Virus record (IMG/VR): IMGVR_UViG_2541047437_000015
DNA: 21,659 bases
Strand: one strand, 5' to 3'
From: a virus
Lineage: Duplodnaviria > Heunggongvirae > Uroviricota > Caudoviricetes
Shown piece by piece: positions 861 through 5,679 of this stretch. The notes beneath the pieces were generated by a model. It was given only the letters and a program-made list of their open reading frames with translations. It was not told the DNA's origin and made no database searches. Both the position numbers and the translations under genes were made by a program. How positions within the stretch are numbered: position 1 is the first letter of the stretch; the number at the start of each line of letters is the position of its first letter.

Positions 861-1598
861 TCATTCACTCTCTTTCAAACCAGTTTTAACTGTTTGTGGT
901 TTTGGGTAAGGCTGGACTTTGAATAGCTTTGTGTTGAGGCGTTTTCTGGCCCTCTTGTTCAGAAACCGGATGTAACGAAACTGTCGGAACTTATGAACAC
1001 TGGCTCTGTCAATATTAGCCCTCAGATGTTCACCTCGTTGTCCGCCTCGTTTAATGGCATTCCTGCAAATCTCGTGATACCACTCGCCATCAAGTTCATA
1101 GAATATTGATTCATGGCTGCCTACATAATCAAAATTGCTTGCCTGATACACGACACCAAGACAGCCACAACGCTCATCTGCAAACGACTGAACCCACTGT
1201 ACCTGCGGATAAAGCTGCCTGATTAGCTTGAGCGCGTAACTGATTGCCCTTGATTCGGAGTTTCTCGGCATACAGTCATGCAGCCATAGCCGGTTAAGCT
1301 CCATATATTCTCGGTTCTGCGTACCCGTTACGACGCGTGCACCACTGTTTGGGTTAAGGGCGTAACCCCATTGCATTACGCCAACAAGTTCCCGTTCTGA
1401 AAATATGCCCAGATGAAGGTAGGAGTTATTTACGAAACGGTGGCTGTAATGTTTATTGACGATGACCAGTCTGGCCAGCCAGCAACTTATTGTCTCAACC
1501 CGCAACTCACGGGAGCCATAACCAACGATATTGTCGTTATAGCGAATAAGTTCAGGCGTGCTGATGATTCGGGATGTGACTTGCTTTCTGTTCCCCAC
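861..1598 (-). CDS. mom: DNA modification protein Mom-like (adenine modification, anti-restriction)
   Basis: 245-aa ORF with GTG start at 1598 and AAGGAAA 9 nt upstream. It sits immediately downstream of and overlapping com and is the last gene before the prophage end, exactly as mom does in Mu. Function is assigned by synteny, not by a motif I can point to. Confidence 0.75.
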
Positions 1599-1752
1599 GA
1601 CAGGATTTCCTTGTGTATGTGGGGTGCTCTGTGGCGCTCGGAGATGTGATTTGATTGAGGGTTTTACAGCGCGGACATTTTACTTCCAGATAACTGAAAC
1701 TGGCCCGTGCCAGTAGCTTATTGCAGTGTCGGCACCGTATGTTTCGATACAT
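1552..1752 (-). CDS. com: Com-like zinc-finger translational activator of mom
   Basis: 66-aa ORF from ATG 1752 (GGAGG 11 nt upstream). [30 protein letters not shown] is a C-x2-C...C-x2-C finger closely resembling Mu Com. The track's 81-aa version starts at an upstream TTG and is probably over-extended. The 3' end overlaps the mom start by 46 nt. Confidence 0.8.
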
Positions 1753-1945
1753 GACCGCATAACCTCCTGCTTTGTTGTTGATGCCTTTCTCATGCAATCG
1801 ATCGACAAAAACGATCGATTCGATTTGTTTAATTGATACAACAAATAGATTGAAAAGTCATCAACAATGATTCAGGGAGGTGATTATTTACTTAAAGAAA
1901 ACGAAGAGTTAGGTGGTGAAAACGATCATAAAATGATCATTTTAT
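1753..1945 (-). promoter_or_regulatory. com-mom upstream regulatory region with four GATC (Dam) sites: 1800, 1813, and the palindrome GATCATAAAATGATC at 1924-1938
   Basis: GATC positions read directly from the sequence. In Mu the mom promoter is controlled by Dam methylation of clustered GATC sites (OxyR binding) and activated by C. No promoter hexamers are assigned with confidence. Confidence 0.5.
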
Positions 1946-2025
1946 TGACTTTTTATACAGTGAAGGTAGGATCACGCGTATATGTAGTATGTTTCAAATC
2001 AACAGGATACTACATAAAAGTGAAA

Positions 2026-2051
2026 CCCAGCATAGCTGGAACTATGCTGGG
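2026..2051. other. Perfect 10-bp stem-loop (CCCAGCATAG-ctggaa-CTATGCTGGG) in an AT-rich intergenic region
   Basis: Inverted repeat read directly; no U-tract follows on either strand, so it is not a canonical intrinsic terminator. Confidence 0.5.
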
Positions 2052-2163
2052 TCAATCTGTAAAAACTTGCATCAATGCTTTACTTCGAGCTCGTGGCGTA
2101 TCCTATGATATTCCCCGGTCTCCTGTAAAGCAGAGATGCATAAAAAGGAGATCTTTATCATGG

Positions 2164-2331
2164 ATGAAAGAGCCTGTTTGCCCTGCCTGTAAGACTCCCT
2201 TACAGCTCATCTATCGCCGTTCTCGATCTCAAAATGGCAAGACATACAAACCCAAAAATGCTTCCTGTTTCAGGATGCTGATATGTCCTGCCTGTTCTCC
2301 CAGGAGGGAAAATACACAAAACGTGCATTAA
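2164..2331 (+). CDS. Candidate small zinc-ribbon protein (55 aa, CPAC...x24...CPAC)
   Basis: C-terminal part of track ORF 1867..2331. ATG at 2164 preceded by AAGGAG at 2145-2150 (13-nt spacing, rather long). Two CPAC motifs 24 residues apart. It is on the opposite strand to every other gene here, so it may be spurious. Confidence 0.3.
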   Translation: MKEPVCPACKTPLQLIYRRSRSQNGKTYKPKNASCFRMLICPACSPRRENTQNVH

Positions 2332-2340
2332 CAAACTCAC

Positions 2341-2360
2341 CCGGCAGGGAAACCTGCCGG
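2341..2360. terminator. GC-rich stem-loop CCGGCAGG-gaaa-CCTGCCGG between convergent ORFs
   Basis: Perfect 8-bp stem with a GAAA tetraloop, located between the minus-strand 81-aa ORF stop (2370) and the plus-strand candidate ORF stop (2331). U-tracts are weak on both strands. Confidence 0.4.
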
Positions 2361-2369
2361 TCGGTATTG

Positions 2370-2615
2370 TTACATCATAGTACCGTCAGTTCCGGGCTGA
2401 ACCGGCTCTGGTTGCTCTACGGGTTGAGGATCATTTTCCGTGCTGTTTTCAGCCGGAGAACGGCCAACCATTCGGGCCAGCACTTCATCAACATATGCGT
2501 CGATTTGTGCCTCAAAATCCTTGCGAACCTGCGCCTTCAGCACGCGGTTCACTTCTTCAGAATAAAGTGCCTGTTTGACAAGCTCTTCAGTAACCGTGCC
2601 TTTAATCTCTGGCAT
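2370..2615 (-). CDS. Hypothetical acidic protein (81 aa), cargo gene
   Basis: ORF with strong RBS AAGGAG 8 nt upstream of ATG 2615. Composition looks protein-like (E/K/V/A-rich N-terminal half, Pro/Glu/Gln-rich acidic tail). No family recognised. Confidence 0.6.
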   Translation of the reverse strand: MPEIKGTVTEELVKQALYSEEVNRVLKAQVRKDFEAQIDAYVDEVLARMVGRSPAENSTENDPQPVEQPEPVQPGTDGTMM

Positions 2616-2650
2616 GAATATTCTCCTTTTGCAGGTATATTGCCCCGTTA

Positions 2651-2833
2651 TCAGAGCGGGGTCGGGTCGTTTGGGGATGACGGTGCCTGTGCTGTTTTAC
2701 TGAGTTTTTCAGCTGCCGCATCATCAATTTTACGGCGAATATAATTTCTGATGACCTTATAACCACCGCTCACCAGATATAACGCACTGACCACAGCGCA
2801 GAAATAAAGCAGCATTGTATGAACGAATGTCAT
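2651..2833 (-). CDS. Hypothetical small membrane protein (60 aa; one predicted N-terminal transmembrane helix followed by a basic segment)
   Basis: ORF with TAAGG-type RBS about 7 nt upstream of ATG 2833. Residues 4-22 (VHTMLLYFCAVVSALYLVS) are hydrophobic, followed by a KVIRNYIRRK basic stretch. Confidence 0.55.
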   Translation of the reverse strand: MTFVHTMLLYFCAVVSALYLVSGGYKVIRNYIRRKIDDAAAEKLSKTAQAPSSPNDPTPL

Positions 2834-2946
2834 ATAACCTTACCTTTGATATTGACTACATAATTCGTTATCGGGTAAAAACATCGAAGCGACTGATAAC
2901 CACTCCTTCGGGAGTATTTTTATTTTCCTTTATGGGTTAGGTAGCT

Positions 2947-2987
2947 CCCGCCAGCCATATCATGACCGGCGGGATTTTTTTATTCTG
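2947..2987 (+). terminator. Plus-strand-oriented intrinsic-terminator-like hairpin (CCCGCC...GGCGGG followed by ATTTTTTTATT), directly abutting the esterase stop codon
   Basis: 6-bp GC stem with a ~15-nt loop and a T7 run on the plus strand. On the minus strand, where the neighbouring genes lie, the A-run precedes the hairpin, so it would not act as a canonical terminator for them. Confidence 0.4.
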
Positions 2988-5019
2988 TTACCGCTTTTTT
3001 CACTTCCACCACAATGCTGTCAATCAGCACCGGGTAAGTTGCATTTTTTGTGATATCCGTTACGCGGAGTTTGTCCACCGGGAAAGTTCCTACTGGTGAC
3101 TGCGTCAGGGTAAACGCGGCACCATCCTGACCATCAATAACCGGAATAACCTGAAGGCTGTTATTTCCTGCAAAACGGAAGGCCAGCGTATGCCATTCAT
3201 TATCAAATGCACCAAAGGTTCCCAGTTTCTGGTTATTTGTTGCCACTTTTGCATTGTGGTACATCACATTCAGGTCTTTTGCGTCTGTCTGGATGTAGAA
3301 CGATGCCAGCAGATTATTCCCTGCATCCCCTGTCAGGGTGACACCCTGCGGCAGAGAGGAAACCGGCCAGTAAAGCCCCATGACATACTGGTTTGCCACC
3401 AGGTCGCCAGGTACTTTAAAACGACAACTGATTAAACCACCATTTTTCAGCAGTTCAGCACCAGTACCGGCATCATGATCCAGATACCAAGATGATTTAC
3501 CTGTTTCCTTGGTCAGTTTCATTGCCTTACCACCTGTGCCTCCTGCATCACTGATAATTTCAGCTTTACCGCCAGCCGGCTCCCAGCCCTGGGCTTTCAG
3601 ATTTCCTTCTGACTCACTGACACGATAAGACAGCAGTGTTGTGGTTACTGCTTCAGTTTCTGAAGGTGACGGCACTGGTGCTTCAGTTTCAGAAGATGGA
3701 ACATCGGCTTTTACTGTGGTTCGCCCCGCATGAGTCAGAACTGCCGTGGCCAGACGGTCGGAAATAATCCCACGACGTGCCCATGAACTGAAATGGCTGG
3801 CCCGGTCCGCAGATGTCCAGGTGGCGGCACTGTTACGCCACGTTGAGCCGTAATAACCAATGGATTCAATATCCGGGTCTTCTGCCGGATTGTTGGTGGG
3901 TACATTCGCGTCATTTTCATCTGTCATTAATGGAACGAAATGAATGTTTTTATCTGTTTTGTTTTTGTAGCCGCCATAGATTGCCTGGTATGCCGGTTCA
4001 TTTTTCTGTTTCCAGAAATACGTGGTATCGCCACAAATCCACGGAACGCCAGCAGCACTGCCACCGGTACACTGTTCCGCCTGTTCAGCCAGGTCTGCGC
4101 GGAATTTTTCCACCATCGCCAGAAACAGCGCGGAATGCTCCGTCGGCTTCGCATCAATATCAAACTCGCCCTGCATCCACACCACAGCAAGCAGGCGGTT
4201 TTTCGGGTTCTTCGCCAGTGCCGCTTTTGTCCGGCTGATTAAGTCCTTATACAGCGGCTTATCCACACCCCAGCGGGCTGAGTCCTCTGAAGCACCCGTG
4301 CTGTCACTGTACGTGCCGTCAGCACCCGCCGTGAATGCAGAACCACCACGGCAGCAGGGAACCAGCAGAATCCCCGCATCTGCCGGAATAAACGGCAGCA
4401 GTTTTTTGGCAATGTGAAGCCCCTGACCCACGGTGCCATATTGCCCTTTAGCCACATCCGCTTTCGGGTGATTTTTTCCACTCATATCCTGCACATCATG
4501 CAGACAGTGGTCGGCCAGAATGATGTCGTTATACTGACAGGCTTTACCTCCCGGCGTGACTGTACTGCGACGGGCTAACTGCATAATACGCGGTTCGGGG
4601 CGGTCATATGTCTCCGGCAGTGGCAGACCTTCACCGTAAGCCATACCGTTTGACTGACCAGCAAGAACCACCACGTAATACCAGGAAGGGGAGCTGGAAG
4701 CAGTTTCATTTCCTGACGGACGGGTATGTGTTTCAGCATTATCCCAGTCTGACGGTTCAGCAGTACCGGCAACATCAGCACTTAACGGAATGACCGCACC
4801 AATACCCGCTCCGGTAATTTCCACACTCGGATCACCGGATACTGGCCTTACCCACAGGCAATCCCGTGTATTAAAACTGATGAGACAGTCAGCAAATGTC
4901 ATTCCTCCTTTTGTTTCGGCCGGAGGAAAGGGAGCCTCAAGAAATGCCGCTGTACCACCGGAAACTTTAACAGTAAAGTTTCCGGGCATTGATGATAGTT
5001 GAACCCATTTGGACGTCAT
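2980..5019 (-). CDS. SGNH/SASA-family esterase, putatively a sialate O-acetylesterase-like (NanS-p-like) protein, with a C-terminal lectin/carbohydrate-binding-like domain
   Basis: 679-aa ORF. VVVLAGQSNGMAYGE contains the GQSN nucleophile motif typical of SASA/SGNH esterases. A Ser/Thr/Glu/Pro linker (SETEAPVPSPSETEA) precedes a ~200-aa beta-rich C-terminal domain. This architecture resembles the prophage-borne NanS-p esterases of E. coli. Confidence 0.6.
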   Translation of the reverse strand: MTSKWVQLSSMPGNFTVKVSGGTAAFLEAPFPPAETKGGMTFADCLISFNTRDCLWVRPVSGDPSVEITGAGIGAVIPLSADVAGTAEPSDWDNAETHTRPSGNETASSSPSWYYVVVLAGQSNGMAYGEGLPLPETYDRPEPRIMQLARRSTVTPGGKACQYNDIILADHCLHDVQDMSGKNHPKADVAKGQYGTVGQGLHIAKKLLPFIPADAGILLVPCCRGGSAFTAGADGTYSDSTGASEDSARWGVDKPLYKDLISRTKAALAKNPKNRLLAVVWMQGEFDIDAKPTEHSALFLAMVEKFRADLAEQAEQCTGGSAAGVPWICGDTTYFWKQKNEPAYQAIYGGYKNKTDKNIHFVPLMTDENDANVPTNNPAEDPDIESIGYYGSTWRNSAATWTSADRASHFSSWARRGIISDRLATAVLTHAGRTTVKADVPSSETEAPVPSPSETEAVTTTLLSYRVSESEGNLKAQGWEPAGGKAEIISDAGGTGGKAMKLTKETGKSSWYLDHDAGTGAELLKNGGLISCRFKVPGDLVANQYVMGLYWPVSSLPQGVTLTGDAGNNLLASFYIQTDAKDLNVMYHNAKVATNNQKLGTFGAFDNEWHTLAFRFAGNNSLQVIPVIDGQDGAAFTLTQSPVGTFPVDKLRVTDITKNATYPVLIDSIVVEVKKAVTE

Positions 5020-5118
5020 AATAATCAGCCTGTTCCTGAATAAACTGAATTATCATATCCACAGACCGATAAACGCCATTTTGCGTTAATTCAGTAAAGG
5101 CCCAACAAAGAGAGCGTC

Positions 5119-5679
5119 TTATTTTTCCGAAACGCTCGCAGGATAATAACGATAAAGGGTTGAAAGGCCGATATCAAAAATAAGTGCCACCTGTCTTCGA
5201 CTGACACCCCCGGCCAGTAAACGCCCGACCTGCTCGTATTGTTCCTGCGTGAGACGACGGGGTCTGCCGCCGGTTCGTCCCCTTTCACGGGCAGCTGCAA
5301 GACCAGCCCGTGTCCGTTCGACAATTAATTCACGCTCCATTTCTGCCAGCGCACCCATTATGTGAAAAAAGAAGCGCCCCATGGGGGTTGACGTATCAAT
5401 GTTGTCAGTAAGACTACGAAAATTTATCCCCTGTTGCTGTAATTCATCTGTCAGCGCAACAAGGTGGCGCATACTGCGCCCCAGCCTGTCCAGTTTCCAG
5501 ACCATCAGTGTGTCACCGGGTTTTAGTTTCTTCAGTGCCCGCTTCAGTCCCGGCCGCTGTGTCGTTTTACCACTCATTTTATCTTCAAAAATCTGCTCAC
5601 ATCCTGCACATTCCAGCGCATTTCTTTGTAAACCTGTGTTCTGGTCATTTGTTGATACGCGTATATAGCCAATCAGCAT
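5119..5679 (-). CDS. gin: Gin/Pin/Cin/Hin-family serine DNA invertase
   Basis: 186-aa ORF. MLIGYIRVSTNDQN...VWKLDRLGRSM...FRSLTDNIDTSTPMGRFFFHIMGALAEMERELIVERT is near-identical in pattern to Mu Gin, with the catalytic Ser in the RVST motif. RBS AAGGAAGG 8 nt upstream. Lies adjacent to a gix-like site. Confidence 0.9.
   Translation of the reverse strand: MLIGYIRVSTNDQNTGLQRNALECAGCEQIFEDKMSGKTTQRPGLKRALKKLKPGDTLMVWKLDRLGRSMRHLVALTDELQQQGINFRSLTDNIDTSTPMGRFFFHIMGALAEMERELIVERTRAGLAAARERGRTGGRPRRLTQEQYEQVGRLLAGGVSRRQVALIFDIGLSTLYRYYPASVSEK

Follow-up and report, generated by a model that had tools for sequence, protein, structure and literature searches.

We examined a pair of small, adjacent open reading frames (ORFs) in IMG/VR virus record IMGVR_UViG_2541047437_000015, a stretch of 21,659 nucleotides (nt) of tailed-phage (Caudoviricetes) DNA that is referred to below as the window. 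The two frames occupy positions 2370 to 2833, are read on the minus strand, and encode proteins of 60 and 81 amino acids (aa). The 60-aa protein is a member of Pfam family PF07125 (DUF1378), with a score of 131.5 bits, an E value of 1.2e-38, and residues 1 to 59 aligned to positions 1 to 59 of the 59-position profile; the 81-aa protein belongs to PF05696 (DUF826), with a score of 56.7 bits and an E value of 2.8e-15 over residues 1 to 52, the Pfam gathering threshold being 25 bits for both families. The corresponding PHROG groups are 494 for the 60-aa protein and 311 for the 81-aa protein (E value of 6.6e-30, full length), both annotated as being of unknown function, and RefSeq holds identical proteins under WP_000144787.1 ("DUF1378 family protein") and WP_001114104.1 ("DUF826 domain-containing protein"). 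The original prediction, made from the DNA sequence without database searches, had located both frames and their ribosome-binding sites correctly, and these sites can be read in the sequence (Table 1); its statement that the products match no family was wrong.

The 3.3-kb region from 1800 to 5100 is 100% identical at the DNA level to the chromosomes of E. coli E2855 and other enterohemorrhagic E. coli (EHEC) strains, and E. coli O157:H7 Sakai has the matching arrangement in its Mu-like prophage Sp18, where it forms the right end and reads ECs4992 (invertase), ECs4993 (esterase), ECs4994, ECs4995, ECs4996 (on the opposite strand), ECs4997 (com), and ECs4998 (mom). In the window, the esterase gene, whose product is a NanS-p-type sialate O-acetylesterase, is followed on the minus strand by the DUF1378 gene, the DUF826 gene, and a hairpin at 2360 to 2341. 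We are therefore highly confident that these are the DUF1378 and DUF826 genes of a NanS-p cassette and that the prophage carrying it is Mu-like, of the Sp18 type. It is an ordinary and already annotated pair, residing in a known cassette within a known prophage type and accompanied by a previously reported small RNA (sRNA). A literature search with the Sakai tags ECs4993 to ECs4995 found no paper, and the sole main-text match for the tags of prophage Sp5 was a microarray table with ECs1211.

Table 1. Positions of the gene pair, the elements around it, and the neighboring genes in the window
Feature	Position	Strand	Evidence or remark
DUF1378 family gene, 60 aa, ECs4994 counterpart	2651-2833	minus	ORF; Pfam, PHROG, RefSeq
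DUF826 family gene, 81 aa, ECs4995 counterpart	2370-2615	minus	ORF; Pfam, PHROG, RefSeq
Shine-Dalgarno-like site of DUF1378 gene, AAGGTAAGG	2846-2838	minus	Read from sequence
Shine-Dalgarno site of DUF826 gene, AAGGAG	2628-2623	minus	Read from sequence; 7 nt 5' of ATG (2615)
sRNA gene EcOnc37 (PasA/PasC-like)	2852-2981	plus	Promoter/terminator architecture, covariance model, Hfq peak in the literature
sRNA -35 hexamer, TTGACT	2852-2857	plus	Followed by 18-nt spacer
sRNA -10 hexamer, TAAAAA	2876-2881	plus	
Inferred sRNA start	near 2887-2889	plus	
Internal sRNA terminator, short hairpin/T-run	2902-2926	plus	Extra in window type
Final sRNA terminator, GC hairpin (2946-2974; -13.9 kcal/mol) and T7 (2975-2981)	2946-2981	plus	T7 overlaps esterase stop codon
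Sense terminator-like hairpin, CCGGCAGG-TTTC-CCTGCCGG, with partly T-rich tail	2326-2360	minus	Just 3' of DUF826 stop codon; distal cassette end
NanS-p-type SASA/DUF6645 carbohydrate esterase gene, 679 aa, ECs4993 counterpart	2980-5019	minus	Pfam SASA, E value of 6.5e-12; DUF6645, E value of 2.4e-69; PHROG 143
Gin-type invertase gene	5119-5679		Window genes
Com gene	1552-1797		Window genes
Mom gene	861-1598		Window genes

Products of the two genes

As read from the sequence, 4 nt separate the Shine-Dalgarno-like site of the DUF1378 gene from its ATG at 2833, and the -35 hexamer of the promoter for the opposite-strand sRNA is adjacent to this site; the intergenic gap between the DUF1378 and DUF826 genes is 35 nt. 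The DUF1378 protein contains a single hydrophobic stretch (residues 3 to 21, mean Kyte-Doolittle value of 2.02) and has an isoelectric point (pI) of 9.3; its three N-terminal residues are uncharged, and residues 26 to 45 include six Lys or Arg residues against three Asp or Glu residues. Because of this charge distribution and the positive-inside rule, it is predicted to be a single-pass inner membrane protein with its N terminus outside and its C terminus inside (N-out/C-in), continuing into a basic amphipathic cytoplasmic helix. AlphaFold2 modeled it as one unbroken helix over residues 3 to 49, with a predicted local distance difference test score (pLDDT) of ~76 to 87, and residues 50 to 60 as disordered. 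The DUF826 protein is acidic (pI of 4.34; 16 Asp or Glu residues and 8 Lys or Arg residues) and comprises a helical N-terminal domain (residues 1 to 51) and a Pro/Glu-rich disordered tail ending in two Met residues; its model consists of a short helix (residues 10 to 17), a long helix (residues 20 to 50, pLDDT of >90), and a disordered tail (residues 51 to 81). In our reading of the sequences, the cytoplasmic helices of both proteins present a hydrophobic residue at every three to four positions. Hydropathy, charge, and pI agree with the original description of a single-pass membrane protein next to a small acidic protein. Profile and structure searches, which had also been proposed, had a divided outcome: the former supplied the two families, and the latter, conducted with PDB sequence profiles and with Foldseek against the PDB, yielded nothing meaningful for the pair.

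Apparent natural DUF1378-DUF826 fusions or programmed frameshifts (P0139, P0148, and P0160, together with "long" DUF826 forms of 125 to 138 aa) were considered and rejected, being due to 1-nt changes in an A-run of the DUF1378 gene or to upstream start calls in a frame overlapping the 3' end of that gene. The DUF826 frame relative to that of DUF1378 is +1 in the lambdoid copies and -1 in the window, and a conserved frameshift fusion is therefore rejected; PHROG 8301 (139 positions) probably models the long DUF826 calls. YdfR of E. coli K-12 was likewise considered as a DUF826 protein and rejected: on testing, it proved to be a DUF1327 protein, and the RNase E-binding data on YdfR (PMC13232886) are therefore not applicable to DUF826.

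The opposite-strand small RNA and the terminators

The 146-nt spacer between the esterase stop codon and the DUF1378 start codon houses an sRNA gene on the opposite strand. Its layout, TTGAC(A/T)-N17/18-TAAAAA followed by a hairpin and a run of six to eight T residues, is kept in 36 of 38 distinct spacer types, among which the stems vary (CCGCCAG.., CCCCTCCGC, GGCCAGCGCC.., and GCCAGCG..); it is therefore the structure rather than the sequence that is conserved. An automatic consensus structure kept three base pairs only, the 3' arms being misregistered in the MAFFT alignment, and covariation was judged from per-sequence folds and not from pair counts. A covariance model built exclusively from nonwindow copies matched the window at 2904 to 2981 on the plus strand (24.7 bits; E value of ~0.005), and this was its sole match below an E value of 1. 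A scan of the window against Rfam returned no family at an E value of ≤1. The possibility that the sRNA is Esr41 was rejected; the spacer copy of phage PA28 scored 28 bits against the Rfam Esr41 model, with an E value of 0.28, and Esr41 is encoded on SpLE1.

The gene has been encountered before. Hfq cross-linking with cDNA analysis (CRAC) in E. coli O157 Sakai revealed a peak, EcOnc37, within Sp18 on the strand opposite ECs4993 to ECs4995, with a predicted Rho-independent terminator; it was present in five of five CRAC replicates, and the ECs4993...ECs4994 intergenic region ranked 57th among Hfq-bound intergenic regions (PMC4104026). After application of an estimated genome-version offset of 128 to 135 nt, calibrated on AsxR, the peak maps to approximately 2912 to 2989 on the plus strand of the window. 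EcOnc37 is the Hfq-cross-linked peak reported for this very Sp18 spacer. In enteropathogenic E. coli (EPEC) E2348/69, the Hfq-dependent sRNAs PasA and PasC are encoded between an esterase gene and a holin gene, on the opposite strand, and a minor 3' end of PasA corresponds to the terminator abutting the esterase stop codon (PMC8550237, table S6). PasA and PasC of EPEC and EcOnc37, EcOnc51, and EcOnc52 of EHEC share with the window sRNA their position, their opposite orientation, a -35 hexamer of the TTGACA type, and a terminator, formed by a GC hairpin and U7, that adjoins the stop codon of the esterase gene; the resemblance to PasA and PasC is mostly confined to the 3' part, and the window copy differs in possessing an extra internal terminator. 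The terminator-like plus-strand hairpin that the original prediction had placed upstream of the pair is real, is represented by two structures (Table 1), and is the terminator of an opposite-strand, Hfq-bound sRNA gene (EcOnc37, PasA/PasC-like). In locus L110 (2766 to 3213; prophage PP2 of E2348/69) and in locus L111, two tandem sRNA units, the second of which is PasA, and a nine-codon ORF stand in place of DUF1378 and DUF826.

The spacer sRNA does not overlap the ribosome-binding site or the ORF of DUF1378. At the other end of the pair, a hairpin with a T-rich tail follows the DUF826 stop codon not only in the window but also in the other cassette types compared, both lambdoid and Mu-like, with stems that differ among them. 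Given a terminator 3' of DUF826 together with the terminator of the sRNA, the pair is bracketed by outward-facing terminators.

Distribution, exchange, and selection of the cassette

Synteny was assessed in a sample of 80 IMG/VR viral loci found through DUF826, loci without upstream room being excluded from the counts. DUF1378 lay directly upstream of DUF826 in 77 of 78 loci with room, and an esterase gene lay upstream in 73 of 74; the only exception among the 78 was L081 (1 to 1160), in which an IS3-family insertion element resides inside DUF1378. Downstream of DUF826 there was a holin gene in 39 loci, which are lambdoid, and com-mom in 29, which are Mu-like. The order in Shiga toxin (Stx) and other lambdoid phages is (stx), the SASA esterase gene (nanS-p), DUF1378, DUF826, a P21-type class II holin gene, a lysozyme gene, and Rz, whereas in Mu-like prophages the cassette lies between gin and com-mom with no holin gene beside it. 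The trio of esterase, DUF1378, and DUF826 was also found in lambdoid prophages of Citrobacter and in three diverged lineages of Mu-like prophages; in the third and more divergent of these, the trio is present and gin is absent. One cassette, consisting of the esterase gene, DUF1378, DUF826, and the terminator, is thus shared by two unrelated phage backbones, lambdoid/Stx and Mu-like.

The pairs of Stx lambdoid prophages (ECs1210/ECs1211 of Sakai Sp5; gp83/gp82 of PA28) have the same Pfam families in the same order as the window, with an upstream NanS-p-type esterase gene, the same opposite-strand sRNA-type spacer element, and a terminator after DUF826. They share only ~53% (DUF1378) and ~45% (DUF826) aa identity with the window proteins, with synonymous sites saturated, and the window cassette differs further in its Mu-like prophage setting, flanked by gin and com-mom, its lack of a downstream holin gene, and an esterase without DUF1737. 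In place of a DUF1737 N-terminal domain, residues 1 to 110 of the window esterase form an unrelated segment of ~110 residues without a family match.

Both families are narrow, yet they are frequent in E. coli. Named hits came from Escherichia, Shigella, and Citrobacter, and a search of 1.84 billion proteins yielded only 59 clusters (50% identity). Of 5,426 complete E. coli genomes, 167 contain the 3.3-kb region from the esterase gene to DUF826 in its window-type form; the lambdoid version matched 1,052 genomes, at a median of two places per genome, and DUF1378 occurred in 309 phage records, mostly of Stx-converting phages. When genome contigs were scanned with the DUF1378 profile, not one of the 240 pattern matches was confirmed, and the taxonomic breadth therefore rests on protein searches.

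The cassette has not always been inherited as a block. In mosaic loci L019, L020, and L024 to L026, gin and DUF826 are 95 to 100% identical to those of the window, whereas the esterase gene and DUF1378 are only ~60% identical; the breakpoint lies between DUF1378 and DUF826, and the spacer sRNA is missing. In L075, a Mu-type gin-esterase segment is joined to a lambdoid DUF826-holin-lysozyme segment. These arrangements point to recombination within the cassette between related prophage copies; L075 may alternatively be an assembly chimera.

DUF1378 and DUF826 are real protein genes under purifying selection. The ratio of nonsynonymous to synonymous substitution rates (dN/dS) against diverged homologues was 0.18 to 0.32, with synonymous sites saturated. 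Between the window and a second Mu-like lineage (L005 type), it was 0.32 for DUF1378 and 0.22 for DUF826, and neither of these two lineages has a holin gene beside the pair; between the window and the lambdoid copies, dS was saturated and dN was still 0.4 to 0.55. The N-terminal domain of DUF826 gave ratios of 0.15 to 0.3. Invariant residues of DUF1378 are located in the transmembrane (TM) helix (L9, Y10, F11, S22, G23, G24, and Y25) and in the basic helix that follows it (R29, R33, I36, D37, E42, and K43). Residues 1 to 51 of DUF826 are conserved; its tail varies in length, is rich in Pro, Glu, and Asp, and in most variants terminates in two to three hydrophobic residues (MM, MML, or TML). 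The notion that the ORFs are nonfunctional leftovers, hitchhiking in the spacer between the esterase gene, the sRNA gene, and the terminator, might appeal to the lack of a known function for the pair, to its absence from some similar prophages, and to its interruption by an insertion sequence in one locus. Set against dN/dS ratios of 0.2 to 0.3 across saturated synonymous divergence, invariant residues throughout the TM and cytoplasmic helices, and frames, start codons, and Shine-Dalgarno sites that are all intact in ~50 distinct protein-pair variants, this explanation is scarcely credible.

Possible roles of the pair

The reading that we favor, tentatively, is that the two proteins constitute a membrane-anchored accessory unit translated from the esterase transcript. 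Cotranscription with the esterase gene is its firmest component and is somewhat likely: a sense-strand scan of the DNA preceding the pair found no sigma-70 promoter at its threshold, and the opposite-strand promoter fills the DNA up to the DUF1378 Shine-Dalgarno site, so that the pair is probably carried on the esterase transcript. The pair would then have no promoter of its own and would be translated from a message that in lambdoid phages is Q dependent and late; mitomycin C raises nanS-p expression by 1 to 2.4 log (PMC10462455). We suggest that DUF1378 enters the inner membrane in the N-out/C-in orientation as one long helix and that its basic amphipathic extension (residues 26 to 45) docks the acidic amphipathic helix of DUF826, leaving the acidic disordered tail free at the membrane surface. 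Such a physical complex, proposed from sequence features, is conceivable, if somewhat doubtful. The complex might assist the esterase cargo, for instance with its placement, its timing, or its release, rather than belong to one lysis cassette; this esterase-accessory role is the least secure element of the proposal, and we consider it rather unlikely. The opposite-strand sRNA is a perfect complement of the RNA between the esterase and DUF1378 cistrons and could thereby reduce expression of the pair or disconnect it from that of the esterase.

Several observations weigh against this proposal. The interaction model draws solely on complementary charge and amphipathicity, and the mosaics pair a ~59%-identical DUF1378 with an unchanged DUF826, which argues against tight coadaptation of an interface. 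Prophages PP2 and PP5 of EPEC E2348/69 possess the esterase gene, then sRNA units, and then the holin gene, without the pair. Distant, short-tailed DUF826 proteins (59 to 79 aa; L099 and L102 to L106) are accompanied by neither DUF1378 nor the esterase, their genes being located between Rz and terminase, beside a conserved cluster of genes encoding a ~178-aa protein, a 287-aa protein, a Methyltransf_23 protein, and a 212-aa protein. With the esterase occurring without the pair and distant DUF826 without its partners, neither partnership is obligate. The promoter scan detects consensus sites only, so that weak or factor-dependent promoters would escape it. The original description of the pair as cargo of unknown function was right: it lies in a cassette inserted between gin and com-mom, and the literature searched assigns no function to it and reports no experiment on either protein.

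The lambdoid setting invites a different explanation, namely, that the pair modulates the timing of lysis: DUF1378, with DUF826 as a cytoplasmic partner, would tune the pinholin/signal-anchor-release (SAR) endolysin pathway in the manner of an antiholin or holin-binding factor, so that lysis is delayed or sharpened and toxin, esterase, and virions accumulate. In all lambdoid loci examined, the gene next downstream of the pair is that of a P21-type class II holin, followed by those of lysozyme and Rz, within the same late transcript, and the genes for the distant DUF826-only proteins likewise adjoin a lysis cassette. RI and RIII of T4 and LydB of P1 are holin/antiholin accessory proteins, and these small membrane-associated and cytoplasmic proteins are likewise encoded beside a holin gene in a late operon, a parallel that extends to the lambdoid context only; DUF1378, as a small membrane protein whose cytoplasmic C terminus is charged, may by analogy resemble, together with its small cytoplasmic partner, the T4 RI/RIII antiholins. 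Mu-like prophages, however, keep the pair under selection ~25 kb from their own lysis genes and with no adjacent holin gene, some prophages with the same holin have no pair, and a sense-direction terminator intervenes between DUF826 and the holin gene. Homology to ordinary lysis proteins, which the original prediction had raised as an outcome that would speak against it, was not detected: an hhalign comparison of the DUF1378 profile with six P21-type holins gave a probability of 0.2%, and DUF1378 has a single hydrophobic segment, versus two TM segments for Phage_holin_2_1. We regard lysis timing as unlikely. Because the pair has been selected in Mu-like prophages far from the lysis genes and without a P21-type holin, a role tied to the esterase cargo, or an autonomous role, is likelier than membership in one lysis cassette.

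The original prediction had seen in the locus the layout of a toxin/antitoxin (TA), superinfection exclusion, or abortive infection module, in which DUF1378 would damage the membrane or block entry and would be restrained by DUF826 or, in a type I-like manner, by the divergent Hfq-binding sRNA acting on the mRNA leader. In tisB/istR-1, shoB/ohsC, and zorO/orzO, a divergent sRNA gene overlaps the DNA preceding an ORF that encodes a small hydrophobic protein, and the present locus may be likened to these systems in layout only, sharing a single-pass hydrophobic protein with a divergent Hfq-type sRNA upstream. The size and shape of DUF1378 are like those of type I toxins and small exclusion proteins, the DUF826 tail is disordered, like those of labile antitoxins, the terminator insulates the pair from the holin gene, and the sRNA persists where the pair has been lost (E2348/69), a direction of loss that a toxin would permit. 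The type I systems differ, however: DUF1378 exceeds their small proteins in length and possesses a conserved cytoplasmic helix of 25 residues; a second conserved protein gene comes after it; neither a promoter of its own nor a long leader was found; and the sRNA can occur without the ORF and the ORF without the sRNA, the latter in cassette types L019 and L026. Searches for known systems gave no support to the module: PADLOC-DB had no match for DUF1378, the esterase, or a neighboring 154-aa ORF, and only a nonsignificant match of DUF826 to PbeC (E value of 0.052); Pfam and NCBIfam contained no toxin or antitoxin domain for the pair; and, for type II TA systems, no toxin family or DNA-binding antitoxin was found in Pfam, NCBIfam, or the PDB, the DUF826 model being without a DNA-binding fold. 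The consensus sigma-70 scan revealed no dedicated promoter, and the lambdoid pair resides in a Q-dependent late operon, so that a function in the lysogen would be silent. PasA of EPEC, moreover, is described as an sRNA that acts in trans, on many targets (PMC8550237). A module of this kind is, in our view, improbable.

A variant in which the sRNA, DUF1378, and DUF826 form one regulatory unit is more improbable still. In this scheme, DUF1378 would act on the membrane, either like a toxin or as a factor in lysis or permeability; the divergent Hfq-binding sRNA would gate in cis its production from the esterase transcript, and DUF826 would buffer its activity. The trans-acting PasA and PasC of EPEC would be descendants of a cis-acting, antitoxin-like RNA that persisted after its protein partners were lost.

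In lambdoid phages, the pair sits between the Shiga toxin and NanS-p genes and the lysis genes, and it is therefore made when toxin is produced and released. Should the pair prove to have a function in the timing of lysis, the release of the esterase, or the physiology of the membrane, that would be relevant to the delivery by Stx phages of both toxin and mucus-foraging esterase. What is added here is the assignment of the two proteins to families, an identity for the plus-strand hairpin, and a delimitation of the cassette together with its exchange between lambdoid and Mu-like prophages. The practical value is that of a correction, in that the ORFs belong to named families and the hairpin is part of a previously reported sRNA; no new kind of element is involved.

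The surroundings of the pair provided some further observations. The 154-aa ORF at 1867 to 2331 on the plus strand is the counterpart of ECs4996, and probably only its last 55 codons (2164 to 2331) are a real gene. This gene is preceded by AAGGAG, and its product is a CPxC...CPxC zinc-ribbon protein; in other loci, the part at 2164 to 2331 is 96 to 100% identical and the upstream part of the 154-aa ORF is frameshifted. The gene is convergent with DUF826, and the hairpin at 2341 to 2360 is common to both. The Mu-like prophage does not seem to extend to the left end of the window, approximately positions 1 to 860 (compare L001, 6579 to 6583, and L004, 17500 to 19100). Two Stx phage records and E. 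coli E2855 have the Mu-like element inserted inside a lambdoid prophage, next to NinG/NinH/Q genes, and the lambdoid prophage that hosts it carries its own esterase-DUF1378-DUF826-holin copy.

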